Source: Halarcobacter sp.
GTDB taxonomy: Bacteria; Campylobacterota; Campylobacteria; Campylobacterales; Arcobacteraceae
NCBI GenBank assembly: GCA_963676565.1
Contig: OY781089.1
Coordinates: forward strand, 2,464,001-2,528,000
Reading direction: 5' to 3'
DNA length: 64,000 bases
The notes beneath the pieces are model-generated. The model made no database searches, was not told the DNA's origin, and saw nothing but the letters and a program-made list of their open reading frames with translations. Position 1 is the first letter of the stretch. The number at the start of each line of letters is the position of its first letter. Shown piece by piece: positions 7,307 to 21,638 of this stretch. The position numbers and the translations under genes were made by a program.

Positions 7307-9070
7307 TTAAATTAATACTACTTTATTCTTACCCTCATCTTTAGCTTTATATAAAGCATCATCAGCTCTTTTTAAAACTGTTGTAGAATCATCATCTAAA
7401 GCAAATAAAGTTAATCCAAAACTTGCTGTTACAGTTCCTACCGCTTCAAAGTTTTCAGATTCTATTGTTTTTCTTAAATCTTCCATTAATTTTAAACTTC
7501 CTTCCAATGAAGTTTCTGGACAAATTATAACAAACTCTTCTCCACCCCATCTTCCAAGATGGTCAACATTTCGGATATTTTCTTTTAAGATTTTAGCAAT
7601 TTTAATTAATACACTATCTCCAATTTGATGCCCATAATTATCATTTATATATTTAAAATTATCAATATCAATAATTGCAAGTGCAAAAGTATGATAATAT
7701 CTTTGTGAACGAATTATCTCATCTTGTAATAGTTCATCAATCTTAAATCTATTATTTATTCCTGTTAGTTTATCTGTAATTGCAAGATGTTCTAATTCAG
7801 ACTTTAATTTTTCTTTTGTTTCAAGCATATTATTTAAATAAATTGCCATTTGATTAAACTCTTTAAATAGTATTTTCCCACTATCTATTTTTGTTCTTTC
7901 ATTACTTGAATTTTCAAAGAAAGTATTAAACTCATCTATTGATTTTCTAATTCTTCTATTCCACCAAATCATTGAATATAATGATAAAAGAGTCAAACAA
8001 ATCATTAAAATACCAACTATATAAATCCTATTTTGTTGTTCCTCTTTTTGTTTTAATGCTTTATAAAATATTTCTGATTTCATTTCATCTAAATAAGAAC
8101 CTCCACCAATAGACCAATTCCATGGTTTAAAACCTTTTATATAAGCATACTTAGTTGTTTTTTGATCGGAATTAGGCTTTTTCCAAATATAATGAACAAA
8201 ATCACCCTCTTCTTGTTTTGCTACTTTATTAAACTCTTTTACAACGAATAAGCCATTTTCATCTTTAAAATTAAGCATGTTTTTTCCTACAATTTGAGGA
8301 TTTAAAGGATTCATTAAAACAGTTCCATCTAATTTATTTATAAAAAGATATTCGTGATTTCCATACCTAACTTCATTTAATCTATTTATTACCTCATTTT
8401 GAACAATTTTCTCATAATCTTTAACATATTCAGAAGTCCCAATATATAAATCAAAAGGTTCAAAATATTTTATAAAACCAATTTTTTTACTTTCATTTTT
8501 CTTATTATCTGTTCTATAAAAGTAGTATTCAACATATCCCTCTTTTTGTTTTGATGAAGCAATATATTTAAATAAATTATGAAGATTTATACCATGAGTA
8601 TCTTTATGATCTCTTAGAAAATAGGTGCCTTCATACTGGGGGAAAATAGGATGTAAAACAGTTTCTCCATCTAATTTTAAAATAAAAAAATACCCCCTGT
8701 CATCAAAAAATCTGAATTCTCTTAATGACTCTTTTATTATTGAAATAATCTCTTCATCTGATTTTGTATCTTTAAACTTATTGTATAAATTATCTGCAAT
8801 ATGATAAGCATCATAAATTTTATCTTTTAAAACTTCTTTTAGATTATTTTCTGCATTTATTCTTTTATATTTTATATAATCAATTGCATTTTCAACTTGA
8901 TTTTTAAGTAGAGTTTTTCTTTGTTCTAGTTGCATATTTTGGTAATTTTTGATGATTTGTTCAGAACTAAACCTTACTTCAAAAAACCAAAGTAGTGTTA
9001 AACTAAAGGTAAAGAAAAAAGAAACAAAAAGTATGATATTTGTAAAGGAAAAATGCTTCAAATATTTCAT
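7307..9070 (-). CDS. Cache-domain sensor diguanylate cyclase
   Basis: Two TM segments flanking tandem Cache-like regions (GYFFI..HP, EYLFI..NP, YIWKKP); DIDNFK.IND.YGH..GD and RWGGEEF. Confidence 0.9.
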   Translation of the reverse strand: MKYLKHFSFTNIILFVSFFFTFSLTLLWFFEVRFSSEQIIKNYQNMQLEQRKTLLKNQVENAIDYIKYKRINAENNLKEVLKDKIYDAYHIADNLYNKFKDTKSDEEIISIIKESLREFRFFDDRGYFFILKLDGETVLHPIFPQYEGTYFLRDHKDTHGINLHNLFKYIASSKQKEGYVEYYFYRTDNKKNESKKIGFIKYFEPFDLYIGTSEYVKDYEKIVQNEVINRLNEVRYGNHEYLFINKLDGTVLMNPLNPQIVGKNMLNFKDENGLFVVKEFNKVAKQEEGDFVHYIWKKPNSDQKTTKYAYIKGFKPWNWSIGGGSYLDEMKSEIFYKALKQKEEQQNRIYIVGILMICLTLLSLYSMIWWNRRIRKSIDEFNTFFENSSNERTKIDSGKILFKEFNQMAIYLNNMLETKEKLKSELEHLAITDKLTGINNRFKIDELLQDEIIRSQRYYHTFALAIIDIDNFKYINDNYGHQIGDSVLIKIAKILKENIRNVDHLGRWGGEEFVIICPETSLEGSLKLMEDLRKTIESENFEAVGTVTASFGLTLFALDDDSTTVLKRADDALYKAKDEGKNKVVLI

Positions 9071-9157
9071 TATTCTAGCCTAACTTTCTGCTTTTATTTT
9101 TATTTTACCATAAATTAACCTCTTATAATAAAATTATTAAAAATTAAATTTTTAATT

Positions 9158-9631
9158 TTATTTTTTATTCTTATAAGATATATATTCTTTTCTTACATCA
9201 ACTATAAAACCTTTTTTCAAAAATTCTCTACCCAATAAAATAGGATAATTCATCTTTTTTCTATTTGTTAATGTAAACTCTGTTTCAATATATTTTCCAA
9301 AAATAAAAACTTCTGTTAATATAACGTATCTTTTTTCTATAATTCCATTTGAACTTCTAACCTTTGCAATTCTTCTAATTGGAAGTTTAAACTTTTGATT
9401 CTTATATTTTTTGTGAGTTTCATCTAAAACATCAAAAACTACATATTTATCATCGATTGATTCAATAAAACTACAATGTAAAGATGAAGTTTTAGCTCCA
9501 GTGTCAATTTTTGCTCTTAAATCTTTTAAATTTAATAAAGGTAAATCTACTCGATCATATTTTCCTATTACAATATCTTTTGCGTATAAACTTGCAAGAA
9601 AAAAACATAAAACTAAAAGTTGTTTAATCAA
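9158..9631 (-). CDS. RimK/LysX-associated putative protease (retropepsin-like fold), exported
   Basis: Signal peptide; AKIDTGAKTSSLH, VRSSNG..EKRY, FTLTNR..MNYPILLGR. Confidence 0.82.
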   Translation of the reverse strand: MIKQLLVLCFFLASLYAKDIVIGKYDRVDLPLLNLKDLRAKIDTGAKTSSLHCSFIESIDDKYVVFDVLDETHKKYKNQKFKLPIRRIAKVRSSNGIIEKRYVILTEVFIFGKYIETEFTLTNRKKMNYPILLGREFLKKGFIVDVRKEYISYKNKK

Positions 9632-9649
9632 ATTATCTCTTTTATAAAA

Positions 9650-10162
9650 TTACTCTTGTATTGTCCAAATAAACTTTGAGGTATCAAAACCTTTTTTTGA
9701 GGCTATATCTATTAATCTTTTTTTCGTATTTTCATCAATTGTTTTTGTTCTACTTAATATCCAAAGATATTCTCTACTTGGACTTCCAACTAATGCATAT
9801 TTATAGTCTTTATCTAAATCAATAATCCAGTAATCTCCATAAAATGGTCTAAAGAAACTAACTTTTAATTTTGAATTAGTAATATCAGTAGCATAAGCTA
9901 CCCCTTTTGCTTCTTTTTTCTCATTAGTTTCAATTTTTGTACATCTGTTGATAACTCTTATTTTTTCATCTTCAAGTAAACTATAATTAGCTGTAACATT
10001 CTTGCATCCTTTTTCAAAAAAGTGTTCAAATCTAGCTATTTCATACCAAGTACCTAAGTACCTATTTAAATCAACTCTGTTTTCTGTTGCTAGGGGCTCA
10101 TACTTTGTTGAACATCCCACAAAAAAAATTATAGCTACTGTTAATATTAATTTTCTTATCAT
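9650..10162 (-). CDS. blc: Outer-membrane lipocalin
   Basis: Lipobox FVGC; RYLGTWYEIAR, KLKVSFF.PF.GDYW, YLWILSR. Confidence 0.9.
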   Translation of the reverse strand: MIRKLILTVAIIFFVGCSTKYEPLATENRVDLNRYLGTWYEIARFEHFFEKGCKNVTANYSLLEDEKIRVINRCTKIETNEKKEAKGVAYATDITNSKLKVSFFRPFYGDYWIIDLDKDYKYALVGSPSREYLWILSRTKTIDENTKKRLIDIASKKGFDTSKFIWTIQE

Positions 10163-10164
10163 CT

Positions 10165-11454
10165 TTACTCCTTTATTTTATATATGTTCTTTTTTACATC
10201 TAATGCCATTTGTTTATAATCAAAACTTGGTATCAACTCTTCTTTTCCAAGCCATTTTTTCACATACTCTTTTCCACCATAAAAGCTTGATTGTTTAACT
10301 GGGTCAAATATTCGATACTCTTTATCATTGCCAACACCTGCTTGATAAGCAAAGTTACCATAATTTGAAGCAGGATTATAATCTAATAAATACTCTTCAA
10401 AAAATGCTGCACAATATCTAAAATCTAAACCAAGATTTTTTATAAAATAGCTTGCTAATAATTGTCTTTGCCTATTACTTATCCAACCTGTCTTTTTTAG
10501 TTCTATAACTCCTGCATCAATTATATCAATGCCCGTCTTAGCATTAAAAAATAATTCTAATTTATCTTTATTATTTAAAAAATTATACTTTTTATAAATT
10601 AGTCCCTCTTTTAAAAAAAGTCTATTTTCACTTTGAAGCATTACAAAATGAAAAAAATCTCTCCAAAGTAATTCAAAAAAAATCCAATAAGAAGATTTTG
10701 AAACTCCTAATTTGTTTTCATACTCTTTTATTTTATAATACAAAGTTTTAACACTAATACAACCACTTGCTAAATAAGAGGAAAACTTTGTGGAATTATT
10801 AAATCCATCTACTAAACTTCTAGTATCATAATAAATGTGGATATATTTAGATAAATATTCATCAACTCTTTTCAAGGCGTTTGTTTCTCCACCTTTTAAA
10901 ACTCTTTTATTTTCGTCAAAAGATAAGTTTATCTCTTCAATTTTTATACACATAAAAAGTTTATCTTTTGAATCAATCACTTTTATAGGTTCTTTTATAG
11001 TCATTTTTTCTGCTTTTTTTCTAAAATGACTAAAACTTTTAGTGTAATCAAACTCAAATGGTTCTAACATTGTTTGATTAAAGAAGCTTTTACCCTTGTA
11101 TTTTTCTAGCTTCTTTTCAAATTTCCTTTCTTCAACTCCGACTTCTTTTTCAAAAAAAACTCTTAAATCATAATCTTCATTTAAAAGCTCAAGTGTTATT
11201 TGTATATCCTCAACTATATAAAGCCAAATATTTTTTTTCAGTAAATTTTTCTTTAAATCAATTAAGGACTCATAAATAAATTGTTTTCTAAACTCTCCAC
11301 ATTTATTAAATCCAAGATTATTCCCTTTTAAAATCTCCAAAGAATAAAGACATATCATATTTTCACAGCATTTTGAGGCTTCATTTAAAGCTAGATTATC
11401 ATGTATTCTAAGATTGTTTCTAAAAACTGTAATACAAAGTTTTGGCTTACTCAC
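10165..11454 (-). CDS. Cryptochrome DASH-family flavoprotein (atypical; see findings)
   Basis: FRNNLRIHDN, GGET, STKFSSYLA.GCIS, FELLWRDFF, SNRQRQ, AGVGND; likely start GTG 11454 after GAGGAG, overlapping the upstream stop. Confidence 0.85.
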   Translation of the reverse strand: MSKPKLCITVFRNNLRIHDNLALNEASKCCENMICLYSLEILKGNNLGFNKCGEFRKQFIYESLIDLKKNLLKKNIWLYIVEDIQITLELLNEDYDLRVFFEKEVGVEERKFEKKLEKYKGKSFFNQTMLEPFEFDYTKSFSHFRKKAEKMTIKEPIKVIDSKDKLFMCIKIEEINLSFDENKRVLKGGETNALKRVDEYLSKYIHIYYDTRSLVDGFNNSTKFSSYLASGCISVKTLYYKIKEYENKLGVSKSSYWIFFELLWRDFFHFVMLQSENRLFLKEGLIYKKYNFLNNKDKLELFFNAKTGIDIIDAGVIELKKTGWISNRQRQLLASYFIKNLGLDFRYCAAFFEEYLLDYNPASNYGNFAYQAGVGNDKEYRIFDPVKQSSFYGGKEYVKKWLGKEELIPSFDYKQMALDVKKNIYKIKE

Positions 11455-12835
11455 TAAATAACTCCTCTTTAAATCTTTTTGCATTATTCAAATGGTTTTG
11501 AAGTTTCTCCTCATCCATTTTATTTAGTAATGAAATTTGCATTTTCATTCTTGGATTGTCTTTGAAAAGATGATTATATTTATATAAAAAGCTCCAATAT
11601 AAACCATCCCAGATTTCACACCAACTTTCACTTTTTTTATAATCACTTGACATTTTTAAAATATAGTTACTACTACTTATATATGGTTTTGTTGTAATTG
11701 AACCACCGTCACTAAAACCACTCATACCATATACATTTCCAACCATAACCCAATCATATGCATCAATATAGTTTGCCATAAAAAACTCATATACACTATT
11801 TGGTTTTATCTCTAAAAGTAAAAATAAATTTCCAATTATCATAAGTCTTTCTATATGATGGTTATATGAAGTAAGCTTTAGTTTTTTTATTACATCATCA
11901 AAGGGTTTTAATGAAGTATCTCCTTCATAAACTTTTTTAGGAATCTCATTTTCAAAACCAAAAAAATTGGAATTTCTAAGTTTTACATGGGAAGTTTTAT
12001 AGATAGAAAGCATAAACTCTCTCCAAGCAATTATTTGTCTTAAAAATCCCTCTTTTGCATTAAAAGGTACATCAACCTTTGAAGCTTCGTTTATTAGATA
12101 TTTTAAATCTAAAAGTCCAACATTTAAACTTGAAGAGATATTTGAATGAAATAAAAAAGAGCCTTTTTCTACAATTGCATCTTGATAAACACCATATTTT
12201 TTAAATTTATTTTTTAGAAAATAACCTAGGTTTGCCCTTGCCTCTTCAAATGTTATTGGATAAGTAAACTGTTCGCAAGTTCCTACGCTTTTGAATTTCT
12301 TGCAATACTCTTTTGCTTCATGTAAATATTTATTTTCAAAATTTAGTATTTGAGGAACTAATTCATTCTTTGGCATCTTCTTTCTATTTTCACTGTCAAA
12401 ACTCCATTTTCCACCATAAGGTTTACCATTTTCAACAAATAGATTTAATTCTTTTCTTCTATTTATATAGTATTTGTGTAAAAACTTATTTTCATCATTA
12501 ACATTTAAAAAATTTGGGTTCTCAAGAATTTTTATTTTTTTAAAATTTCTTTTTATTTTTTTCAATAACCAGTCATCAACAACATCATAAATAACTATCT
12601 GTTTATCTTGATATGTTTCTAAATATCTCTCATCTTCATAATATTCCACATCGATTTCATTTTTTAGTAAATACTCTTCATAAAACTTCATTGAAGCTCT
12701 ATGAAAAATAAGTTTTTGTATATGAAAAGTATATAAAGTAAAGAACAAAGGCTCTTCAATTAGAAGAACCTTTTTATTTTTTAGATTTTCAATATTTTCA
12801 AATAATTGATGAGGATATAATATAAAGATATTCAA
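11447..12835 (-). CDS. Prokaryotic (6-4) photolyase/cryptochrome family protein (PhrB/CryB-related), Fe-S-less type
   Basis: PHQLF, H.QKLIFHRASM, GGKWSFDSENR, YQDA, EGFLRQIIAWREF, HHIERLM, DAYDWV, KPYISSSNYILKMS. Confidence 0.87.
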   Translation of the reverse strand: MNIFILYPHQLFENIENLKNKKVLLIEEPLFFTLYTFHIQKLIFHRASMKFYEEYLLKNEIDVEYYEDERYLETYQDKQIVIYDVVDDWLLKKIKRNFKKIKILENPNFLNVNDENKFLHKYYINRRKELNLFVENGKPYGGKWSFDSENRKKMPKNELVPQILNFENKYLHEAKEYCKKFKSVGTCEQFTYPITFEEARANLGYFLKNKFKKYGVYQDAIVEKGSFLFHSNISSSLNVGLLDLKYLINEASKVDVPFNAKEGFLRQIIAWREFMLSIYKTSHVKLRNSNFFGFENEIPKKVYEGDTSLKPFDDVIKKLKLTSYNHHIERLMIIGNLFLLLEIKPNSVYEFFMANYIDAYDWVMVGNVYGMSGFSDGGSITTKPYISSSNYILKMSSDYKKSESWCEIWDGLYWSFLYKYNHLFKDNPRMKMQISLLNKMDEEKLQNHLNNAKRFKEELFSE

Positions 12836-12853
12836 CTTAGTTCCAATATGTGT

Positions 12854-13789
12854 TTAAGCACATCTGTTTTCAAATAAATCTTTTAGAGTTTCAAGGAAAT
12901 ATTGATTATGGTTTGGAGCCTTTGCTACTCTATAATCTTTTATTCCAACCTCATCGGCAATCTCTTTATACTCAATGTCAAGTTCAAATTGTGTTTCAGA
13001 GTTATCTACTGTAAAAGATATTGGATAAACAATAACCTTTTTATCTTTCATCTCATGAAGCTTATCATCCATATATGGTCTAATCCATTCCATTGGTCCT
13101 AGTCTAGACTGATATGCTGTATGTATATTCTTAAACTTAATACCTTGTTTTTCTAACTCCTTCTTTGCACACTCTACATTTGCAAGAATATGCTTTTGAT
13201 AAGGATCACCTTTATCTATAGTTCTTTGAGTTAAACCATGTGCAGAAAAGATTAATTCAAACTCTTCTGATTTATCATCTCCTAATGTCTCTTTTATTCT
13301 CTCTACTATTGCTTTATTATATAACTCATGGTCATAATATGAATCTAAGGTTTTAATCTTACCTTTAATACCTAATTTCTTTGCCCATTTTTCAAACTCT
13401 TCAATTGATGATTTAGTTGTAGTTGAAGAATAGTGTGGATACATTGGAATTGCATATATTTCATCATAAGGCTTTAAGTCTTTTAATACATCTTTAGCAA
13501 AAGGTGGTGTGTATCTCATCTTATAAAATACATCAGCATCAACTATTTTTTCTAGTCTTCTAGCTAATCTTTTTGTATGACCTACTATTGGAGACATTCC
13601 CCCTAGAGCTTTATAGTTTTCTTTTGCTTCTTTTTTTCTCATACTTGTAATAAAAAAGCCTATCATTGCTCTTATTGGTTGTGGAGCTCCAATTATATAT
13701 TTATCATTAAACATGTTTGTTAGGAAAACCTCTACCTCATTTAGGTTATTAGGTCCTCCCATGTTCATTAGTACAATTGCTTTTTTCAC
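12854..13789 (-). CDS. hemH: Ferrochelatase
   Basis: MNMGGP, MRYTPPF, PMYPHYS.TT, FSAHGL, GDPY, YQSRLGPMEW, FTVDNSET.FELD; GTG start after AAGGA. Confidence 0.95.
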   Translation of the reverse strand: MKKAIVLMNMGGPNNLNEVEVFLTNMFNDKYIIGAPQPIRAMIGFFITSMRKKEAKENYKALGGMSPIVGHTKRLARRLEKIVDADVFYKMRYTPPFAKDVLKDLKPYDEIYAIPMYPHYSSTTTKSSIEEFEKWAKKLGIKGKIKTLDSYYDHELYNKAIVERIKETLGDDKSEEFELIFSAHGLTQRTIDKGDPYQKHILANVECAKKELEKQGIKFKNIHTAYQSRLGPMEWIRPYMDDKLHEMKDKKVIVYPISFTVDNSETQFELDIEYKEIADEVGIKDYRVAKAPNHNQYFLETLKDLFENRCA

Positions 13790-13808
13790 TTATATCCTTT
13801 TTATTAGG

Positions 13809-13856
13809 ATAATATTTAAATTGGCTGTTTTTTTGTATGTAATTCTTGTTAGTTTA
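13809..13856 (-). promoter_or_regulatory. Shared island promoter motif, copy 2 (TAAACTAACA-N9-TACAAA-N17-TATTAT) upstream of hemH
   Basis: Read on the minus strand; same spacing as the other three copies. Confidence 0.65.
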
Positions 13857-14316
13857 TATTATTTTGTTGAGATAAAATTTCTTTAGTGATTTTATGTCTA
13901 AAGCTAAACATACTATCTAATTCTTTTTTTACAAAGAAATTAAAAAGCTTACCAAATCTTCCAAAGGGTAAAACATATAAAACTTCATCTTTCAATTCTA
14001 CACTATTACCTCTTTTAGTAAATATATGGGAATGTTTCCAATACCTAAATGGAGACTTCATCGCAAAATCTACAAGTAAATTAGGTTTTTGATTTTTTAA
14101 TATCTTAACTTCCCAATATATTGGAATAGGCATAAGTTTTTTTACTGTTTTTAATCGTAGAACTTCATGCTCTTTTGCTTCAAAGCTATCATTTAACATA
14201 GTTACTTTCATATCAGGAGGAGTAATCTTTATTAAATTATTTGAATCAAGATGAAACTCATATAACTCCTCTACTGTACAGTTTTTTATTAATGAAGTTT
14301 TCTCATACTTAAACAT
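13849..14316 (-). CDS. SRPBCC (START-like) family protein
   Basis: FH....NL.KITPP, D...KSPF.YW.H.H.F, D.V.Y.LPFG and FSFRH motifs. Confidence 0.85.
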   Translation of the reverse strand: MFKYEKTSLIKNCTVEELYEFHLDSNNLIKITPPDMKVTMLNDSFEAKEHEVLRLKTVKKLMPIPIYWEVKILKNQKPNLLVDFAMKSPFRYWKHSHIFTKRGNSVELKDEVLYVLPFGRFGKLFNFFVKKELDSMFSFRHKITKEILSQQNNIN

Positions 14317-14320
14317 TTAC

Positions 14321-15175
14321 TTAGCCTACTAAATCTTCTATAGTATCTTCTATATTTGTATATTTAAATTTAAAACCACTATCAATTAATCTTTTTGGTT
14401 TAGCACATTGTCCATCAGTTAAAACCTTTGCACCTTCACTAAATATCAAGTTTAATGCAAACTCAGGTACGGGGAATATTGTAGGTCTATTTAAAGTTTT
14501 TCCTAAAGCTTTTGTAAGTCCTAAATTAGTTGTTGGTGTTGGTGCTGTTAAGTTATACACCCCTTCACATTGTTTATTTTCTATTACATGTTCATAGGCA
14601 TCCAATAAATCACTTATATGAATAAATGAAAAATTTTGTTTCCCATCTCCAATGGTACCACCAACTCCAAGTTTAAATGGAGTTAACATCTTTTTTAAAG
14701 CTCCGCCATCACCTAATACAATACCAAATCTAAATATTGCTGTTCTAATATCTAATTCTTTAGCCTTTAAAGCTTCAGCTTCCCAATCTTTTGCTAATTT
14801 ACCTAAAAAATCTTTTGAATAATTAAAGTCATCTTCGTTATAACAAGCAATATTGTCATATATACCAACTGCTGAAGTTGATATTAAAAGTTCAGTTTTT
14901 TTTTCTGCTTTTTCAAAGGCTTTGATTAAAGCTTTTGTAGTATCTATTCTACTAGAGTATAATAATTTTTTATAAGACTCAGTCCATCTGTTGATAATAT
15001 TTGCACCAGCAAGATTAATAACTACATCTGCTTTTTCTATAGTTTTTGTAAGCTCTTTTATATCTTTAAGGGTTTCTCTTTTGATTCCAATTACTTTAAA
15101 TCCCTTATTCTCAAATCTATTTTTAATACTAGTACCAACAAAACCACTTGAGCCAGTTATTGCTAAAGTTTTCAT
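14321..15175 (-). CDS. TIGR01777 family oxidoreductase/epimerase
   Basis: ITGSSGFVG, INLAGA.I..RWT, SRIDTT, SAVGIY, RFGIVL, GGTIGDGKQ, P..L...GF.F.Y. Confidence 0.9.
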   Translation of the reverse strand: MKTLAITGSSGFVGTSIKNRFENKGFKVIGIKRETLKDIKELTKTIEKADVVINLAGANIINRWTESYKKLLYSSRIDTTKALIKAFEKAEKKTELLISTSAVGIYDNIACYNEDDFNYSKDFLGKLAKDWEAEALKAKELDIRTAIFRFGIVLGDGGALKKMLTPFKLGVGGTIGDGKQNFSFIHISDLLDAYEHVIENKQCEGVYNLTAPTPTTNLGLTKALGKTLNRPTIFPVPEFALNLIFSEGAKVLTDGQCAKPKRLIDSGFKFKYTNIEDTIEDLVG

Positions 15176-15204
15176 ATCTACTCCTTTGCAATTTAATTTT
15201 ACAA

Positions 15205-15251
15205 ATTATAATATATTTATGATTTATTGGTATATTTTATTTGTTAGTTAA
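15205..15251 (-). promoter_or_regulatory. Shared island promoter motif, copy 3 (TTAACTAACA-N9-TACCAA-N16-TATAAT) upstream of TIGR01777
   Basis: Perfect TATAAT -10 16 nt after TACCAA; nearly identical to the ybgA copy. Confidence 0.72.
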
Positions 15252-15257
15252 ACCTTT

Positions 15258-15965
15258 TTAAAAACTTCTTTTATCTAGATATTCTCTAAAATCTTTTGCC
15301 CCATCCTTAGAACTTGTCACAATATCATCAATTCCATTAAATGATATCTCTAACTTAGATTGTTCTACACTTTGCATAGATTTAATCTTATCTACATTTA
15401 CAATATATGACCTATGTATCCTAAAGAAATTTTTACCTTCTAATACAGACTGCATATCTCCAATCTTTTTTCGTAAGTAAGCATCTGCATCTTTGATTTT
15501 TATAATAACTTCATCTAAATCAGCTTTGATATAAAAAATATCATCTATATCAATAAGATAGATTTTATTTCCTCTTTTTGCCACAAGTTTTTTTGTTTCA
15601 TCAGCTTTTACAATATATTTTTTCATTTTATCCAATGAGTTTTTTATTGATTCATTTGAAATTGGTTTTAGTAAATAATCAATACCACCACTTTGAAAAG
15701 CTTCAAGTGCATGCTCTTCATATGCAGTTTGAAATATAATAAAAGTTTTTGGATTTAAATTTACTATTGTGTTTGCTAACTCTAAACCATTCATATCTGG
15801 CATTGATATATCTAAAAAGGCAACATCAAACTTCTCTTTACTTAAAATTTTTATTGCTTCAATAGCACTAGAACAAGCAGTAACATCTAAAATCCCTTCT
15901 TCATTTAAAAGTCTATTTAATCTACTAAGTGCTAATTTTTCATCATCTACTATCAATACTTTCAA
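15258..15965 (-). CDS. LytTR-family response regulator
   Basis: Receiver VDDE...FLDISMP...TAY...YLLKP; LytTR domain FFRIHRSYIVN. Confidence 0.93.
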   Translation of the reverse strand: MKVLIVDDEKLALSRLNRLLNEEGILDVTACSSAIEAIKILSKEKFDVAFLDISMPDMNGLELANTIVNLNPKTFIIFQTAYEEHALEAFQSGGIDYLLKPISNESIKNSLDKMKKYIVKADETKKLVAKRGNKIYLIDIDDIFYIKADLDEVIIKIKDADAYLRKKIGDMQSVLEGKNFFRIHRSYIVNVDKIKSMQSVEQSKLEISFNGIDDIVTSSKDGAKDFREYLDKRSF

Positions 15966-15967
15966 TA

Positions 15968-16957
15968 CTAATCCTTCAAGCTTATTATAAATTTCATACT
16001 AGAACTATCTACTTGATGGCTTAATCTTCCAACATCAAGCAGATCTAATCTTTTATCAAGATTATTTAAACCTGTTCCATATTTTATTCTTTGAGATAGT
16101 TTACCATTATTTATTATAACAATCTGCTTTGAAGAAACTAAAACATCTATTTTTAGTTTATTTCTATTATATCCATGCTTTATTGCATTTTCTACTAATA
16201 GTTGAATAGAAAACTTAGGTACTAAAATATTTTCATCATCTTCATTTAACTCAACATTTAGTTCAATATTATTCTCAAACCTAATATTTTCAATATTTAA
16301 ATAGGTTTTAACCATATCAATTTCAGTTTTAATTGGAATTAAACTCTCTTTAGTAATGGCATTACGTAAAAACCTAGATAACTCAAGGGTTGCTCTCTCT
16401 GCATCTTTTTTATCTACATATATTAATTCAGAAATAGAATTTAAGGCATTAAATAAAAAATGTGGATTTAATTCATTTTCTAAAGCTTTAATTTTTGTTT
16501 CTAAAACTTGAGAATGTATATTTTCATATCTATGTTTCATTGATACAAATTGGTGTAATATTAGTCCAATTAAAAATGTGAGAAATCCAATAATTATAGA
16601 GATAAAAAACCAATAAGGACTTATAAACTCTACTATTTCAATTTTAAAAAAAGAACCAAAATAAAAACTAAAAGAGAAACCTAAAAACCCAGATAAAAAT
16701 GAGAAAAAGAAACTAATCAAATACCAAAATTTCTCTTTGAGCTTTGGTAATATAAAATCATTTGAGATTGTAATAAATACAAAAGAAAATAAAGAGATAC
16801 AAAAAGCCGTTAAACTACTAAAAAGTACTGTGTATACATTTTTGAATTCTTCATTTAGAAAATAGAAAAACCAAGAGATTAAAAACCCAAAACTAGTTCC
16901 TATAAATATTATATAAAGCCAGTCTCTTTTTGAAATTTTTAATTTTATTCTATCCAT
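15968..16957 (-). CDS. LytS/YehU-type membrane sensor histidine kinase
   Basis: About 4 TM helices; ELNPHFLFNALNSI H-box, YL.IE.IRF, QLLVENAIKHG, GTGL.NL..RL. Confidence 0.9.
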   Translation of the reverse strand: MDRIKLKISKRDWLYIIFIGTSFGFLISWFFYFLNEEFKNVYTVLFSSLTAFCISLFSFVFITISNDFILPKLKEKFWYLISFFFSFLSGFLGFSFSFYFGSFFKIEIVEFISPYWFFISIIIGFLTFLIGLILHQFVSMKHRYENIHSQVLETKIKALENELNPHFLFNALNSISELIYVDKKDAERATLELSRFLRNAITKESLIPIKTEIDMVKTYLNIENIRFENNIELNVELNEDDENILVPKFSIQLLVENAIKHGYNRNKLKIDVLVSSKQIVIINNGKLSQRIKYGTGLNNLDKRLDLLDVGRLSHQVDSSSMKFIISLKD

Positions 16958-18368
16958 TAAATTCCTTGTTTAAAGCTTTTACTCCAATTGCAACGCCAGG
17001 CCATCCTTGACCTGCAAAAACTGAGTCTCCAATATTGTATAAACCTTTAAAGGGTGTTTTAGCACTAGGAGTTGAAAAAATATTTTTCATAGTAATAGCT
17101 CTACCTCCACAATTATATCTATTTACATACCTGTTAAAGGTAAGTGAAGTAGCACTAAATTTTTTTATTATATCCTCTTTTTTTATAGTATTAAGTTTCT
17201 GCAATAGTTTTTCTATAATAAACTCTTGGGTTTGCTCTTTTTTTAATTCATACTCATCTTTATCTAACTTTTTCCAAAAAGAAGCCTTTGTATGAGAAGA
17301 GATTGTAACTGAGAATCCCCTTTTTGACATCTTTTCATCATCTTTACTACTAATAGAGATAAAAAATGAATTTGAGATACAATTTGGTATCTGTTCATCA
17401 AGAATTATTAAATAATGGTGTAAAAGATCATAATTTTTTTCTAATACCAAATTTACTACAAAAGCACTTTGGTCATTGAACTCAAAACTATCATAATATT
17501 TTTTTATTCTTTCATCTTCAAAAAGTTTTCCACTATCATAAATAGTAGAGTTTAATACTACATTCTTTGATAAATATTCATCTTTATTTGAGATTAGTCT
17601 AAAATAGTCTTTTTCTAAAACTATTTTTATAATCTCCTCTTTTTTCTTAATTTCAATATCTTCAAGTAAACCATCAAATAAACTACCCATTCCACCATTT
17701 ACATAAAATACATCATGAAAAGGGTATGAAAGCCCTAAAGCTAAAGAAAGAAGTGATATATCCTTTGATGTTGTTTGTAAAGTAATCAAAAGTTGTGCAT
17801 CAATAAAATGTTGATACTCTAAACTTATATTTCCAAGGGTTTCTTTTATAAAACTATTTGCACTTTTAAATACTTCAATATTAAAACTTCTAAAAAGTTT
17901 AATTAGAGTATTTGCACTAAGTATATAAGATTTTAAAGAATATTTTCCATAATAAATATCATGGATTTGCCAAAACTTTTCATCAAGCTCTTTAATTTTG
18001 GCCCAAAAAGCTCTATTATTTTTATTTGGGAAAGCTTTATTAATTTGGTCTAAAAACTCTTCAAAATCTTTTACTCTATCAATTGTTTTTCCATTTTGAA
18101 AAACTCTAAAAGCTATATTGCTTTTTTTGATATCAGGATTATAATTTGCATAATCAAAAATCTCTTTTACAGGATGGTTTTCTTCAAAGCCTACAAAAGT
18201 AGTTGCCCCACTATTAAAAAAACTTCCATATCTTTTAAAAGTACTTGCACATCCTCCTAAGTTTGAATCCTTTTCAAATACCACTATATCTTTATCGCTA
18301 TTTAATGAGGCAAACATACTGCCTCCCATTCCAGAGCCAATTACACAGAGTTCATAATATCTACACAT
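16950..18368 (-). CDS. FAD-dependent oxidoreductase, phytoene desaturase/CrtD-like
   Basis: VIGSGMGG, FEK...LGGCASTFKR.G..F.SGAT, GGMG, GLY.IGDSVFAGQGWPGV; probable start ATG 18368 overlapping the photolyase end. Confidence 0.75.
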   Translation of the reverse strand: MCRYYELCVIGSGMGGSMFASLNSDKDIVVFEKDSNLGGCASTFKRYGSFFNSGATTFVGFEENHPVKEIFDYANYNPDIKKSNIAFRVFQNGKTIDRVKDFEEFLDQINKAFPNKNNRAFWAKIKELDEKFWQIHDIYYGKYSLKSYILSANTLIKLFRSFNIEVFKSANSFIKETLGNISLEYQHFIDAQLLITLQTTSKDISLLSLALGLSYPFHDVFYVNGGMGSLFDGLLEDIEIKKKEEIIKIVLEKDYFRLISNKDEYLSKNVVLNSTIYDSGKLFEDERIKKYYDSFEFNDQSAFVVNLVLEKNYDLLHHYLIILDEQIPNCISNSFFISISSKDDEKMSKRGFSVTISSHTKASFWKKLDKDEYELKKEQTQEFIIEKLLQKLNTIKKEDIIKKFSATSLTFNRYVNRYNCGGRAITMKNIFSTPSAKTPFKGLYNIGDSVFAGQGWPGVAIGVKALNKEFNG

Positions 18369-19692
18369 TTTTAGCCTCTTTAAATCTATCAATTGCCATT
18401 TTTCTTGATAAAGAGATATCAACAATAGATTTTGGGTAATCAACAAATAAATTTGACTGAACACCATTTTCAATATGAAAAAGTCTAGGAGATAAACTCT
18501 CAAACTCTTTTATAACTGATTTTATAAAAATACCCTCTTTATCAAACTTTTGTGATTGGGTATAGGGATTAAATACTCTAAAATATGGTGCAGCATCAGC
18601 ACCTGTACTTGCTCCCCATTGCCATGAGCCAACATTTGAAGAGCATTCATAATCAAGTAGTTTTAGGGCAAAATACTCTTCCCCTTTTTTCCAATTTATA
18701 AAAAGGTTTTTTGTTAAGAATGAACAAACTATCATTCTAAGACGATTATGCATTGTTCCTGTTTCATTTAGATGTCTCATAGCAGCATCTATAATTGGAA
18801 CTCCAGTATTTCCTTCACACCATTTTAAAAAATCATCTTCATTTTCATTCCATTTAATACTCATACCATTAAAGTTATCAAATTGTGAATGTGGGAAGTG
18901 ATATAAAATATAATTGTAAAATTCTCTCCAAAAAAGTTCTCTAATAAACCCTTCACTGTTATCAAATTTTCTATAATAATTAAACAGTTGTCTTGGACTA
19001 ACTATTCCAAATCTTAGATGAACCGATAGTTTTGAGGTACCATCTTTAAAAAAGTAGTCCCTACTTTCTTGATAATCTTCTAATTTCGAAGAAAAATCTT
19101 CCATAAGCCTACACACATTTTTATTTAAAAACTCAGGTAATTGTACTTCTTTAAAACCCATTTCATCTAAAGTAGGAAATTTTTCATAATCAAAATCAAT
19201 TTTTTTAAGAGTTTCATTAAATTTGTATGTTTCTATATTATTTGATTGAGTTAACATAGCCATTGATTTGTAATATGGAGTAAAAACCTTATAAGGAGTC
19301 CCATCATTTTTTAAATGTTCACTTGGATGAGTGATAAAAGAATCATAAAACCTTTTCATAGGTAGAAGTTCTTCTATCTGATTATCCCTATTTTTTGCAT
19401 AATCATCAAAATCGCATGAGCATAAGATCTCATCAAAACCATCTTTTAATTTCCCAATAACTTCCTTTGGTTCACCATAAAAAATAGCTAAGTCAAGACC
19501 TTTTTGTTTTAATTGTTCTTTAAGACTTAGAACACTTTTATAAATAAAAGTAACTCTTTTATCATCTTTAGGGAGAGATTCTAAAATATTCTTATCAAAA
19601 ATAAAAATAGGCAATACTTCATCTTTTGCATATGAAAGTATTGCATTATCTTCTATTCTAAGATCTCTTCTAAACCAAAGGATTTGTCTCAT
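18361..19692 (-). CDS. phr: Deoxyribodipyrimidine (CPD) photolyase, class I/III type
   Basis: WFRRDLRIEDN, YKVFTPY, TSKLS.HL.FG, ELFWREFY, MHNRLRM, N.GSWQW.ASTG.DAAPYFRVFNP. Confidence 0.93.
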   Translation of the reverse strand: MRQILWFRRDLRIEDNAILSYAKDEVLPIFIFDKNILESLPKDDKRVTFIYKSVLSLKEQLKQKGLDLAIFYGEPKEVIGKLKDGFDEILCSCDFDDYAKNRDNQIEELLPMKRFYDSFITHPSEHLKNDGTPYKVFTPYYKSMAMLTQSNNIETYKFNETLKKIDFDYEKFPTLDEMGFKEVQLPEFLNKNVCRLMEDFSSKLEDYQESRDYFFKDGTSKLSVHLRFGIVSPRQLFNYYRKFDNSEGFIRELFWREFYNYILYHFPHSQFDNFNGMSIKWNENEDDFLKWCEGNTGVPIIDAAMRHLNETGTMHNRLRMIVCSFLTKNLFINWKKGEEYFALKLLDYECSSNVGSWQWGASTGADAAPYFRVFNPYTQSQKFDKEGIFIKSVIKEFESLSPRLFHIENGVQSNLFVDYPKSIVDISLSRKMAIDRFKEAKNV

Positions 19693-20642
19693 TATTTAAA
19701 AGCCTCCACTTTAGATCTAAGTGCCATTTCCTTAGGATATGGAGTTAAGAACTTTTGATTATCAAGATATTCAATATTAAATCTTTTTACATAAATTTTT
19801 ATGATTTTAATAACTGCTACTAAAGGGATGATATGTTCTTTAAACTCATCTAAAGCAGCTAATATCTCATGTTTTTCCTCTTTTGTAATATATTTTTTAA
19901 AATATCCAAAAATATGCATTAAGACATTATAAGTGCTTGAAGTTCTACCCTTCAAGGCTATAGCTTCTAAAAACTTTTGTTTGTATAAAGATAATACCTC
20001 TTCAATATCTTTCTTCTCATGATTTGCAACAATTTGACCTAACTCTTTATATGACTTCTGAGATTTTGAATAAATAAGGTATTTATATGAAGTATGAAAA
20101 TCAACTAATTGACCAAATGATGGTTGTGTTTTCATAAACTCAAAAACATCTTTATAGGCAAATACTTGCATTAGAAAGTTTTCTTTTAACCATGGATCAG
20201 TTAATCTTCCTTCTTCTTCTATTGGAAGTAAGGGAAATTTTTCCATAAGCTCTTTGGCAAAAACTCCCACACCAACATTTTCACTTTGACCTTCGCCATC
20301 TGGATAAATTTTCACTCTAGCCATTCCACAAGTTGGAGATTTTGATTTTAAGATATAACCACAAAGTTCATCTTCACTAATAGTATCAACTAATCTTTTA
20401 GAGACACCAACAATATCTTTTGTAACATCTTGTTTAGTGTTTGTTGTTCTTATTATAAGTTCACCATTTATTCTTACTTGTCTAATAGCTTCTCTAGGAG
20501 TTGGATAGATTTCACCTTCTGGGCAAAAAGATCTAAATTCAAAATGTTTTGACAATTCGTCATAAACAAATTTATCCTTAGAATGTTGACCATCATATCG
20601 ACACTGTATTCCAAGTAAACATGTAGAAATACCAATTTTCAT
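19692..20642 (-). CDS. ybgA: YbgA family DUF523-DUF1722 fusion (TudS/RudS-type thiouridine desulfidase)
   Basis: ISTCLLG..CRYDG, FCPE, KSKSPTCG, EEEGRL, FH..YKY, NVLMHIFGYFK; directly upstream of phr as in E. coli ybgA-phr. Confidence 0.9.
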   Translation of the reverse strand: MKIGISTCLLGIQCRYDGQHSKDKFVYDELSKHFEFRSFCPEGEIYPTPREAIRQVRINGELIIRTTNTKQDVTKDIVGVSKRLVDTISEDELCGYILKSKSPTCGMARVKIYPDGEGQSENVGVGVFAKELMEKFPLLPIEEEGRLTDPWLKENFLMQVFAYKDVFEFMKTQPSFGQLVDFHTSYKYLIYSKSQKSYKELGQIVANHEKKDIEEVLSLYKQKFLEAIALKGRTSSTYNVLMHIFGYFKKYITKEEKHEILAALDEFKEHIIPLVAVIKIIKIYVKRFNIEYLDNQKFLTPYPKEMALRSKVEAFK

Positions 20643-20663
20643 CTTTAACCCTTTTTTTGTTTT

Positions 20664-20710
20664 ATTGTAACAAAATGAGGTATTTTTGGTATATTTTGTA
20701 TGTCAGTTTA
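20664..20710 (-). promoter_or_regulatory. Shared island promoter motif, copy 4 (TAAACTGACA-N9-TACCAA-N16-TACAAT, extended -10 TGnTACAAT) upstream of ybgA
   Basis: Read on the minus strand; same architecture as the other copies. Confidence 0.72.
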
Positions 20711-20714
20711 TCAA

Positions 20715-21638
20715 TTATGACATAAATAGGAATATTGCAAAAGGGATATAGAATAAAGAGATTAAGATAGAGATAAATACAGTCAAGGACATCATTTCAG
20801 GTTTTAAATTTAAAAGCGTTGCAATAGTAACTGTGTTTCCCGCTAAAGGAACAATTGAATATAAAAACATCACTTTATAAAAACCTTCATCTAAAAGTAA
20901 TAAAAAGTTTCTATCAATATATATAAATAATAAAACAATTCCTGGCCAAAGTAAAAATTTTAAAGAAAGAGCATATGAGATAAACTTAACATCAAAAGCT
21001 TTTGCACTTTTTAGCTTTTCCATCCCCATACCTAAAAACATCATCCCTAAAATTGCATAACAACCTTTTAGATAGATTATATAATTTAAAAACATCTCAG
21101 GCATTTTTATACCTAAAAGATTAAAGGCAAAACCTAAGATAAATGCGTATAAAACAGGAAGCTGAAGAACTTTCTTTAAACTTTGTCTAGCTGTAAAGCT
21201 TCCCTTTGCCGTTATAAAATACCCAACAGAATTTTGATAAAGCATAGTTCCTAAAACTGTAAAGATAAAAACATCCACAAGATGAGGATCAAATAATATA
21301 ATAGCTATTGGAATACCAATATGCCCTGTATTTCCAGTAGAGCTTGCAAAGGCAAGAAGATTTGAAGTATTATCTTTCCATACTTTTTTAAATAAAAAAA
21401 GTAAAATAAAAGCCATAATAGAACTAGCCAAAAAGAAAAAAACTGGTAAAAAGACAACTGAACTATCAAGTTTTACACTCATTGTTGCATTAAATGCAAT
21501 TAATGGAGCCAAGATATAAAATAAAATCTTGGCAATAGTTTCTTTACTACATCCTAGAAATCTAGTGCTTATAAACCCTAAAATAACTGAAAAGTAAAGG
21601 GGTACAATTTTAGAAAGAAGTGCGAAAAAAACTGTCAT
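20715..21638 (-). CDS. AEC (auxin efflux carrier) family transporter
   Basis: Polytopic membrane protein; GNTGHIGIPIA, LPVLYA, LGMMFLG, PLAGN motifs. Confidence 0.82.
   Translation of the reverse strand: MTVFFALLSKIVPLYFSVILGFISTRFLGCSKETIAKILFYILAPLIAFNATMSVKLDSSVVFLPVFFFLASSIMAFILLFLFKKVWKDNTSNLLAFASSTGNTGHIGIPIAIILFDPHLVDVFIFTVLGTMLYQNSVGYFITAKGSFTARQSLKKVLQLPVLYAFILGFAFNLLGIKMPEMFLNYIIYLKGCYAILGMMFLGMGMEKLKSAKAFDVKFISYALSLKFLLWPGIVLLFIYIDRNFLLLLDEGFYKVMFLYSIVPLAGNTVTIATLLNLKPEMMSLTVFISILISLFYIPFAIFLFMS

Follow-up and report, generated by a model that had tools for sequence, protein, structure and literature searches.

A Halarcobacter Cry-DASH protein with phenylalanine at every tryptophan-wire position marks the end point of a clade confined to the Arcobacteraceae

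Photolyases and cryptochromes carry a wire of tryptophans along which the flavin can be photoreduced, and the role of the Trp triad in living cells, as opposed to rescue of the enzyme in the test tube, is presented in PMC10940379 as the subject of decades of argument from laboratory mutants. The window analysed here, a stretch of 64,000 nucleotides from Halarcobacter sp. (contig OY781089.1), encodes a DASH-family protein that a first-pass annotation had described as having Phe in place of the wire Trp. The locus thus raises the question of whether the wire is truly missing, how it was lost, and what such a protein would still do. The source genome is of a marine-type member of the Arcobacteraceae. 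The genes that bear on the question are as follows.

10165..11454, minus strand: DASH-family cryptochrome/photolyase gene, 429 aa from a GTG start; PF00875 and PF03441, TIGR02765
10165..11484, minus strand: longer open reading frame form of the DASH gene, 439 aa from ATG
11462..11466, minus strand: AGGAG Shine-Dalgarno sequence, 7 nt upstream of the DASH GTG start, read from the sequence
11447..12835, minus strand: FeS-BCP / (6-4)-photolyase-like DPRP gene, PF04244, upstream of the DASH gene and translationally coupled to it
9650..10162, minus strand: bacterial lipocalin (Blc type) gene, PF08212, downstream, 2 nt past the DASH stop
18361..19692, minus strand: class I CPD photolyase gene of the same genome, all wire Trp intact, used as internal comparator

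The extent 10165..11454 proposed earlier is borne out by the AGGAG in front of the GTG and by the homologues, which begin at the equivalent of this start (the 429-aa form). The GTG overlaps the stop codon of the upstream gene (GTGAGTAA). The DPRP protein matches PDB entries 9hnk, 4dja and 3zxs (E 1e-51 to 1e-58), and the class I photolyase gene lies 8 kb from the DASH gene. The DASH gene shares its block with two further genes of photolyase type. The neighbourhood containing DPRP is conserved in four genomes, and the lipocalin gene also adjoins the DASH gene in loci L003-L006. Beyond those four genomes, no DNA-repair signal was found in the gene context of the DASH clade. At 7 of the 15 carrier loci without the DPRP context a DksA/TraR zinc-finger gene adjoins the DASH gene, in two different arrangements. 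A promoter and terminator scan of positions 9000..21000 gave 79 promoter-like sites against 75 expected, and is uninformative in such AT-rich DNA.

Membership of the DASH family is supported by domains, matches and fold. The protein contains PF00875 (E 3e-14) and PF03441 (E 8.8e-34), and its TIGR02765 (Cryptochrome-DASH) score of 327.1 bits lies just above the cut-off of 317.05. Ten other clade proteins score 264-357 bits, six above the cut-off and four below it, and two ordinary DASH proteins reach 478 and 557 bits. With the class I CPD photolyase model NF007955 / PRK10674 the window protein scores 133.6 bits, far below the cut-off of 506. The best PDB matches by phmmer are 6kii, 1np7 and 2j4d (E 1e-62 to 1e-64), compared with E 1e-24 for E. 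coli photolyase. The structure model, an alignment-based AlphaFold (AF2) model, has the DASH fold (pLDDT 95.5, pTM 0.94), and Foldseek places it at TMq 0.84-0.91 to 6kii, 1np7, 2vtb, 2j4d and 2ijg, the best ten ranks all being DASH chains. Database names for the clade proteins are inconsistent and include 'hypothetical protein', 'FAD-binding domain-containing protein', 'deoxyribodipyrimidine photo-lyase' and 'Cryptochrome DASH'.

The active site is retained. Y208, R212, S225, E261, W264, R265, N327, R330, Q331, D358, N364, Y370 and E109 are the same in all 85 clade rows and R328 is conserved in 0.99 of them; with R328 included and E109 set aside, the E. coli equivalents are Y222, R226, S238, E274, W277, R278, N341, R342, R344, M345, D372, N378 and W384. 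The equivalents of E274, W277, R342 and N378 are thus kept in the window protein as E261, W264, R328 and N364, and the DASH signature is present, with Gln for M345 (Q331) and Tyr for W384 (Y370); all DASH proteins have Tyr at the latter position. We take these residues to have their usual roles in the FAD site and CPD site, those contacting the dimer being presumably the equivalents of E274, W277, R342, M345 and W384. E109, which is invariant in clade and canonical rows, aligns with the folate-antenna Glu of plant Cry3. Alignment also confirmed the earlier remark that the Trp of the ELLWRDFF and TGW motifs and the FAD-site residues remain. From these residues we infer that the protein binds FAD and probably a folate antenna. 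The Trp electron-transfer chain, a near-universal functional feature of DASH proteins on which family homology does not depend, is missing, with Phe at all four positions listed here together with nearby residues.

10579..10581, minus strand: F292, TTT, equivalent of E. coli W306 (distal Trp); HMMER pairwise alignment, MAFFT, 1dnp_A indexing, codon read
10549..10551, minus strand: F302, TTT, equivalent of E. coli W316; MAFFT, 1dnp_A indexing, codon read
10420..10422, minus strand: F345, TTT, equivalent of E. coli W359 (medial Trp); HMMER pairwise alignment, MAFFT, 1dnp_A indexing, codon read
10351..10353, minus strand: F368, TTT, equivalent of E. coli W382 (proximal Trp, next to the flavin); HMMER pairwise alignment, MAFFT, 1dnp_A indexing, codon read
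10345..10347, minus strand: Y370, TAT, equivalent of E. coli W384, the DASH-signature Tyr, retained; alignment, codon read
10411..10413, minus strand: C348, TGT, equivalent of E. coli G362, a bulkier residue where the proximal Trp is lost
10375..10377, minus strand: N360, AAT, equivalent of E. coli D374 in the flavin site, changed clade-wide from Asp to Asn or Ser
10483..10485, minus strand: W324, equivalent of E. coli W338 ('TGW'), a Trp fixed in the clade
11128..11130, minus strand: E109, a Glu conserved within the 'EE' motif, opposite 'see' of 2j4d

The equivalence of the wire positions was tested by HMMER pairwise alignment to the solved DASH structures 6kii, 1np7 and 2j4d, which show Trp opposite the Phe of the window protein. 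From residue 304 of E. coli 1dnp_A onwards the class I photolyase of the window can be aligned with it gap-free, so that its Trp index as W306, W316, W359, W382 and W384 (five of its seven Trp); the first four index as W314, W324, W367 and W390 of A. nidulans. In four MAFFT alignments these Trp share columns with the Phe of the DASH protein. An alignment artefact is ruled out by the agreement of the three structures, the four MAFFT alignments and the ungapped 1dnp_A indexing. The first-pass annotation was therefore right about the Phe codons at the W306, W316, W359 and W382 equivalents and about the intact wire of the class I photolyase, and its statement that the standard photoreduction route is missing stands at the level of sequence. 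The alignments support the absence of the whole canonical Trp route (proximal, medial and distal Trp and the W316 branch) from the predicted protein.

The same columns in 175 non-clade DASH rows show which of these changes are unusual. Trp occupies the W306-equivalent column in only 57 of the 175 rows, and F292 alone therefore says little. The near-invariant wire columns of ordinary DASH proteins are those equivalent to W316 (Trp in 164/175), W359 (171/175) and W382 (172/175). Canonical rows also have Gly at the G362 equivalent (165/167) and Asp at the D374 equivalent (0.96).

The window protein does not stand alone. It represents the end state of a clade confined to the Arcobacteraceae, which was found in 20 of 184 Arcobacteraceae genomes and was absent from all 377 genomes sampled across the phylum's other families. 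In this clade the W316-equivalent Trp is lost throughout (Phe in 83 of 85 rows). The W359 equivalent is Trp in 61 and Phe in 24 rows, and the W382 equivalent is Trp in 63, Phe in 17, Ile in 2 and Cys in 2; substitutes at this proximal position are Phe and also Ile, Cys and Met. Most members are of the F-F-W-W type, and the clade as a whole holds a graded series: both inner Trp, the proximal only, the medial only, and no wire Trp at all. Clade support was SH-aLRT 100 in a tree from a quick LG+G4 search of 95 rows with several long branches. The minimum number of changes on the tree is 1 for the W316 equivalent, 3 for the W359 equivalent and 5 for the W382 equivalent. Reconstructed in this way, the outer end of the wire is shown to have been lost once, at the base of the clade, and the medial and proximal Trp later and repeatedly. 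The distribution across the family thus turned what had been noted for one gene into a clade-wide, stepwise and repeated loss.

Other changes accompany the loss. The G362 equivalent is non-Gly in 21 of the 22 rows without the proximal Trp, Gly being kept in one, and one Trp-bearing row is likewise non-Gly. We claim no significance for this covariation because only 4 independent pairs were available (p 0.125-0.625; low power). The replacements are Cys, Val, Leu, Ile and Ala. A LOV-like reactive Cys at C348 was considered and rejected, since Val, Leu, Ile and Ala stand there in other lineages lacking the proximal Trp; this variety fits packing and not chemistry. The D374 equivalent is Asn in 74 and Ser in 9 of 85 rows, and N252S, T255S, M316I, M325L and G329N are further clade-fixed changes near the flavin. 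W324 is Trp in 0.99 of clade and 0.25 of canonical rows, the frequency of Y380 and Y397 is 0.98 in clade and at most 0.03 in canonical rows, and Y347, C348 and Y355 have become fixed within the all-Phe subclade.

Among known systems, the canonical Cry-DASH proteins (Synechocystis 1NP7, Arabidopsis Cry3 2J4D/2VTB and Arthrospira photolyase 6KII) are closest. They have the same PF00875 and PF03441 architecture, 30-33% identity and TMq 0.84-0.91 to the window protein, and in common with it the Gln and Tyr signatures and the FAD-site, CPD-site and antenna-Glu residues. Unlike them, the window protein is without wire Trp, has Asn at the D374 equivalent, is shorter (429 aa) and scores low with TIGR02765. 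The NewPHL photolyases have only two wire Trp, proximal and medial, and are described as photoreducing 18-30 times more slowly (PMC7736829). They were in the FADH- form when isolated anaerobically and their CPD repair was specific to ssDNA (Emmerich et al. 2020, NAR; PMC7736829), but the authors still regard photoreduction as crucial, as FADH- oxidises in air (PMC7736829). NewPHL resemble the clade in having a natural incomplete wire, and most clade members (F-F-W-W) share the same Trp dyad. They differ in being a topologically distinct, shorter class without antenna, whereas the window protein is a full-length DASH relative, and its subclade goes beyond them to zero wire Trp.

Changing wire Trp to Phe in E. 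coli photolyase or in plant cryptochromes is reported to abolish flavin photoreduction in vitro, and the view given for photolyase is that it remains reduced in the cell, the triad being required to reactivate enzyme that was oxidised in vitro (PMC10940379). These engineered mutants have identical substitutions at identical positions, but they are single changes in a wild-type scaffold, whereas the window protein combines four natural changes with a Gly-to-Cys change and differs by about 60% in sequence from every protein studied. E. coli wire mutants that are chemically reduced, or are in vivo, still repair DNA. Class II photolyases and FeS-BCP / prokaryotic (6-4) photolyases are described as lacking the class I triad positions and yet being photoreducible through alternative Trp/Tyr chains; those chains are conserved and mapped and belong to different subfamilies, and none was identified for the window protein. 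Among CC-licensed PMC and bioRxiv literature, no relevant paper on a natural wire-less DASH protein or on an Arcobacter photolyase or cryptochrome was found.

With moderate confidence, we regard the window protein as still a light-driven, ssDNA-type CPD photolyase whose flavin would be kept reduced by the cell and not by photoactivation. The gene product would be a functional protein under selection, belonging to a divergent Cry-DASH lineage of the Arcobacteraceae, and would have dispensed with the intraprotein Trp wire for flavin photoactivation. Cyclobutane dimers in single-stranded or unwound DNA would be repaired by the normal FADH- photocycle, which needs no Trp wire, and a reducing, low-oxygen cytoplasm would hold the flavin as FADH-, replacing light-driven photoreduction. 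With its outer Trp lost, the wire would no longer have given stable charge separation, which would have left the inner Trp replaceable by Phe. The enzyme would act as an accessory alongside class I photolyase, which is present in every carrier genome (20/20 have at least two PF03441 matches). The carrier bacteria are not strict anaerobes, which counts against the low-oxygen part of this reading, as does the conclusion of the NewPHL authors on photoreduction. The clade-fixed changes near the flavin, the marginal TIGR02765 scores and the gene context also weigh against it.

It might be argued that in a decaying or relaxed gene the Phe codons arose neutrally, through AT pressure and avoidance of Trp. 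The window has 24-31% GC and the genome about 27%, clade proteins have a median of 6 Trp against 12 in ordinary DASH proteins, and Trp outside the wire are replaced too, for example W10 by Val or Ile and W227 by Tyr. A broken copy of the clade gene, partial and with a TAG stop, occurs in family genome G150. The earlier argument that two changes per codon speak against drift is also weak, because of the deep divergence of the clade, its Trp-poor composition, the low GC of the genome and the existence of one-step intermediates at the W382 position (Cys in clade members P0079, P0088 and P0092; Leu in non-clade row P0216). The possibility of relaxed selection raised by the first-pass annotation was nevertheless not borne out. 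Between G000 and G086, dN/dS was 0.104 for the DASH gene, 0.097 for class I photolyase, 0.109 for DPRP and 0.090 for Blc; it was 0.15-0.20 in five other close pairs within the clade and 0.22-0.24 in two deeper pairs (window gene against L005 and L006). The graded wire forms all appear to be under purifying selection (0.10-0.20 in six close pairs), and decay or pseudogene status of the window gene is rejected on the value it shares with the neighbouring class I photolyase. Of the 20 carriers 19 have an open frame, about 60 family-conserved positions are kept, and nearly every replacement is Phe, accompanied by a compensating change of the adjacent Gly. Nor is the wire loss a general Trp avoidance, as W257, W264 and W401 are retained in 77-85 of 85 clade rows and class I photolyase of the same genome keeps every wire Trp. 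Mutation bias can explain how an unneeded Trp was replaced, not why only the wire Trp were expendable, and we consider the neutral explanation largely refuted and very improbable.

It is also conceivable that photoreduction of the flavin persists along a substitute hopping chain of other aromatic residues. The Tyr route proposed in the first-pass annotation was suggested by Tyr lying close to each site in the sequence. Several subfamilies are described as having alternative or extended pathways (PMC7736829). Candidates here would be W324, Y370, Y365 and the clade-specific Y380 and Y397, with Y347 and Y355 in the all-Phe subclade, and the fixation of W324, Y380 and Y397 in the clade and of Y347 and Y355 in that subclade is in favour of such a chain. 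In an amphibian Cry-DASH mutant of the terminal Trp, a Tyr reportedly can take over. On the other hand, replacing W382 or W306 of E. coli photolyase abolishes its in-vitro photoreduction even though the enzyme has W338, W384 and W277. Members that keep the proximal and medial Trp share the clade-specific gains of Tyr and Trp, which thus did not arise as replacements, and Ile, Cys and Met at the proximal position look like space-filling and not a redox role. A rerouted wire thus seems quite unlikely from the residues present. A change of job, to a regulator or sensor (a flavin redox sensor or a nucleic-acid-binding factor) whose flavin follows cell redox and not light, is unlikely too, if less so. 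The clade is divergent and at the edge of the DASH model, and its function may therefore have shifted; flavin-site changes such as that of D374 to Asn are fixed, the gene is accessory and patchy, and the DksA/TraR neighbour would suit a regulatory role. Signalling and transcriptional roles are also reported for DASH proteins (PMC11362059). Against this, the dimer-contact residues, which only repair needs, are invariant or nearly so, the antenna Glu is invariant, and the window gene sits among photolyase-type genes.

Light-driven repair with a flavin reduced by the cell remains our preferred reading. A broader formulation, that evolution is making a photolyase-family protein insensitive to reduction of its flavin by light, its wire being dismantled from the outside in, or that the redox state of its flavin is a read-out of cell redox and not of light, is offered only tentatively. 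If the redox read-out were true, this would be a redox-gated member of the cryptochrome/photolyase family, with repair or signalling tied to the redox state of the cell. The clade is a natural version of the Trp-triad experiment, a graded series in which each form stands beside a normal photolyase as internal control, and the window protein is a natural test of the necessity of the wire in living cells. If the protein is indeed becoming insensitive to light-driven reduction in this way, an entire lineage of low-oxygen bacteria would be able to do without photoactivation in vivo.

The DASH-family gene can be read from two starts:

10165..11454, minus strand: DASH-family cryptochrome/photolyase gene, 429 aa, GTG start
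10165..11484, minus strand: longer ORF enclosing it, 439 aa from ATG

Three features make the 429-aa form the likely product: an AGGAG 7 nt before the GTG, an overlap between this start and the stop codon of the preceding gene (GTGAGTAA), and the length of the nearest homologues, which is also 429 aa. The protein has the domains PF00875 (photolyase N-terminal) and PF03441 (FAD-binding). It narrowly passes the NCBIfam DASH subfamily model (327.1 bits, cut-off 317.05) and lies far below the class I photolyase model (133.6, 506 needed). The best solved-structure matches, 6kii, 1np7 and 2j4d, are all DASH (E 1e-62 to 1e-64), and the match to E. coli photolyase is much weaker (5e-24). An AlphaFold2 model built from a 61-sequence alignment was very confident (mean pLDDT 95.5, pTM 0.94), and its top ten Foldseek ranks in the PDB were DASH chains only (TMq 0.84-0.91).

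The Trp wire of E. coli photolyase consists of W382 (proximal), W359 (medial) and W306 (distal), with W316 as an outer or branch position. The equivalent residues and others discussed here are as follows:

10579-10581, minus strand: F292, W306 equivalent, TTT
10549-10551, minus strand: F302, W316 equivalent, TTT
10420-10422, minus strand: F345, W359 equivalent, TTT
10351-10353, minus strand: F368, W382 equivalent, TTT
10345-10347, minus strand: Y370, W384 equivalent, TAT
10411-10413, minus strand: Cys (TGT) at the G362 equivalent, three residues past the medial position
10375..10377, minus strand: N360, D374 equivalent, second Asp of the flavin-site motif 'DYD'
10483..10485, minus strand: W324 of 'TGW', W338 equivalent, Trp fixed in the clade
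18361..19692, minus strand: class I photolyase, the bridge to E. coli numbering

The C-terminal part of the class I photolyase aligned ungapped on 1dnp_A from residue 304, which gives its Trps as W306, W316, W338, W359, W382 and W384, with G362, D374 and N378 between the wire Trps; on the A. nidulans photolyase scale they include W314, W324, W367 and W390. In four MAFFT alignments the class I Trps share columns with F292, F302, F345 and F368, and in HMMER pairwise alignments with 6kii, 1np7 and 2j4d the window Phe face Trp in every structure. The first-pass annotation had reported Phe (TTT) at the W306, W359 and W382 equivalents, and the codons, both kinds of alignment and the 1dnp_A indexing all bear this out. 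It was also right about Phe at the W316 equivalent and about a same-genome class I photolyase with intact Trps (W306, W316, W359, W382, W384). Five Trps are left in the DASH protein (W77, W257, W264, W324 and W401), among them the 'ELLWRDFF' (W264, W277 equivalent) and 'TGW' Trps that it had listed as retained.

A full search of 1.84 billion cluster representatives with HMMER gave 6820 matches at E ≤ 1e-3. From these and the homologue list we pooled 175 aligned comparison rows (P0093 onward), of which 172 are ordinary DASH and three are fragments (P0094, P0121, P0178) from the clade or similar to it; Trp occupies the W382-equivalent column in 172 of the 175, the W359-equivalent column in 171, the W316-equivalent column in 164 and the W306-equivalent column in 57. 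Only three isolated exceptions were seen outside the clade (P0189, medial Phe; P0263, medial Tyr; P0216, proximal Leu). The distal column is a variable loop where Trp is unreliable in ordinary DASH; therefore Phe at the W306 equivalent, though correctly observed, means little by itself. Of the outer Trps it is the W316 equivalent, noted only briefly in the first-pass annotation, that is better conserved.

At 43-99% identity, the 92 nearest proteins in the database form a single group, the clade, whose named members are Malaciobacter species and the rest unnamed Campylobacterota or Campylobacterales. A quick IQ-TREE search (LG+G4) on 95 rows (85 clade, 10 outgroup), with the trait columns removed, supported the clade with SH-aLRT 100. 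No full-length clade row has Trp at the W316 equivalent (F 83, V 1, I 1), and the W306 equivalent is Phe or Tyr except in P0087 (Ser), P0089 (Ala) and P0091 (Pro). The medial position is Trp in 61 rows and Phe in 24, and the proximal position is Trp in 63, Phe in 17, Ile in 2, Cys in 2 and Met in 1 (P0086). The all-Phe state marks one well-supported subclade, the window protein and P0002-P0005 (5/85 rows); it also occurs in P0001 and in truncated P0015 and P0017, aligned separately, and Malaciobacter P0026 and P0029 have no wire Trp either (F-F-F-I). Minimum changes on the tree are one for the W316 equivalent, three for the medial Trp and five for the proximal Trp. These counts alone give no direction, and it is the Trp-bearing outgroup that suggests that loss began with a single event at the outer end of the wire, followed by independent losses of the inner Trps in several lineages.

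The G362 equivalent is Gly in 165/167 ordinary DASH rows and non-Gly (Cys, Val, Leu, Ile, Ala) in 21/22 rows without the proximal Trp, P0027 being the one that keeps Gly; one Trp-bearing row, P0043, has Ala. Only four phylogenetically independent pairs are available, with 3-4 concordant (p 0.125-0.625), so that significance is unreachable. The change may be a packing compensation for the smaller proximal side chain. A chemical role for Cys is disfavoured by the variety of residues found there.

Loss of constraint does not account for these replacements. Relaxed selection had been named in advance as evidence against a functional reading, yet between the all-Phe copies of G000 (the window's genome) and G086 (another family genome) the Nei-Gojobori dN/dS of the DASH gene is 0.104 (dN 0.060, dS 0.574), near that of the class I photolyase (0.097), which speaks against decay of the gene. 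The values are 0.109 for the upstream photolyase-like neighbour (DPRP), 0.090 for the lipocalin (Blc) gene and 0.226 for the Zn-protease gene. Five further close clade pairs gave 0.15-0.20, and deeper pairs (window gene against L005 and L006) 0.22-0.24. Neutral decay is thus a very improbable source of the Phe codons. The earlier argument against drift, from the two changes that TGG to TTT requires, is weak, because dS between subclades is saturated and one-step intermediates occur at the proximal position (Cys within the clade, Leu in a non-clade row). GC in the window is 24-31%, clade proteins have a median of 6 Trps against 12 in ordinary DASH, and some Trps outside the wire were also replaced. 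W257, W264 and W401 are retained in 77-85 of 85 clade rows, W324 was gained, and the G000 class I photolyase keeps its wire Trps among 7 Trps in 443 aa. Mutation bias can account for the way in which Trps came to be replaced once they were not needed, but not for the fact that only these could be spared.

Of the 92 positions that are at least 80% conserved across 167 rows of ordinary DASH, 17 are altered in the 85 rows of the clade. Kept at 99-100% are Y208, R212, S221, S225, E261, W264, R265, N327, R328, R330, Q331, D358, N364, Y370 and E109. All but E109 correspond in order to E. coli Y222, R226, T234, S238, E274, W277, R278, N341, R342, R344, M345, D372, N378 and W384, which we take to be FAD- and dimer-contacting residues; retention of the FAD site, as first described, agrees with this. 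E109 aligns with 'EE' of plant Cry3, presumably the folate-antenna Glu. Fixed clade-specific changes are W302F, N252S, T255S, G305A, M316I/V, M325L/I, G329N, D360N/S, N384D and D393N. The D374 equivalent is Asp in 0.96 of ordinary DASH and Asn or Ser in 83/85 clade rows, and the W338 equivalent is Trp in 0.99 of the clade against 0.25 of ordinary DASH, where it is mostly Phe. Two clade-specific Tyr, Y380 and Y397, are also fixed.

The DASH gene is third in a tight minus-strand run:

12854..13789, minus strand: ferrochelatase, first of the run
11447..12835, minus strand: FeS-BCP-like DPRP gene (PF04244), overlapping the DASH start
9650..10162, minus strand: lipocalin, after the DASH gene
9158..9631, minus strand: putative Zn protease, after the lipocalin
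7307..20642, minus strand: co-directional block with three photolyase-family genes (class I, FeS-BCP-like, DASH)

Also on the minus strand, upstream of this run, are an SRPBCC-size ORF, a DUF1731 epimerase and a LytTR two-component pair (histidine kinase and response regulator), and further on an FAD/NAD-binding oxidoreductase, the class I photolyase and a DUF523-DUF1722 gene (2-thiouracil desulfurase family). The block, which with these, the ferrochelatase and the lipocalin also holds a dCache-GGDEF protein, looks like a light/photo-oxidative-stress island. The oxidoreductase ORF (16950..18503, minus strand, from the first TTG) overlaps the class I photolyase 3' end by 143 nt, and the real start codon of the oxidoreductase probably lies downstream of that TTG. 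The DPRP gene, translationally coupled to the DASH gene, is by sequence FeS-BCP / bacterial (6-4)-photolyase-like (best PDB matches 9hnk, 8ijy, 4dja, 3zxs). In the alignment with 9hnk, the window protein has a gap where the target has its 'C..C' segment, and a non-Cys opposite another target Cys; we assume these Cys to be the [4Fe-4S] ligand positions, and DPRP may therefore lack the cluster ligands. The order DPRP-DASH-lipocalin is shared by four genomes (G000, G086, G172, G177), and the neighbours differ in other carriers. A co-directional DksA/TraR C4 zinc-finger gene adjoins the clade gene at seven carrier loci (L007, L008, L009, L011, L012, L019, L021); in two other genera it lies upstream (g5) or downstream (g17), and rhodanese and hemerythrin genes are close to such loci. 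This adjacency may hint at a regulatory partner.

It is established that the repair photocycle of photolyase starts at excited FADH-, passes to the dimer and returns without the Trp chain, which serves to re-reduce oxidised flavin, as PMC10940379 and PMC7736829 state; the former adds that photolyase probably stays reduced at cellular oxygen levels. NewPHL, as described in PMC7736829, has only the proximal and medial Trps, is photoreduced 18-30 times more slowly, is FADH- after anaerobic purification and repairs ssDNA CPDs. It is the closest natural precedent found, and most of the clade has the same dyad, whereas the window's subclade goes beyond it, with zero wire Trps against two. Our search of CC-licensed PMC and bioRxiv papers, which falls short of proof, found no literature on a natural wire-less DASH or on Arcobacter/Campylobacterota cryptochromes.

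A changed role, regulatory or redox-sensing, would fit the marginal match of the clade to the DASH model (4/10 members under the cut-off), the Asp-to-Asn change at the flavin site and the DksA/TraR gene beside the clade gene in other carriers, but the dimer-binding/splitting residues and the antenna Glu are invariant, and we regard it as unlikely. Rerouting of the electron path through other Tyr or Trp seems to us slightly less likely again.

The clade gene was found in 20/184 family genomes and 8/22 genera, and in only 2/25 genomes of the window's own genus. Among 401 genomes of the phylum (G000, 23 others of the family and 377 from 13 other families), no match at E ≤ 1e-50 was found outside G000. 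In G150, another family genome, a partial copy (L022, G150:C1:2877891-2881433) that covers query residues 228-408 and contains an in-frame TAG looks like a gene being lost. PF03441 occurs in 132/184 family genomes, where class I-type photolyase is common, and each of the 20 carriers has two or more PF03441 matches; therefore the wire-less protein is always added to an ordinary photolyase. The independence of the repair cycle from the Trp chain, together with the NewPHL precedent, leads us to favour, at somewhat better than even odds, the reading that the protein would still be a DASH-type photolyase driven by light to repair CPDs, with a flavin that the cell would keep reduced.
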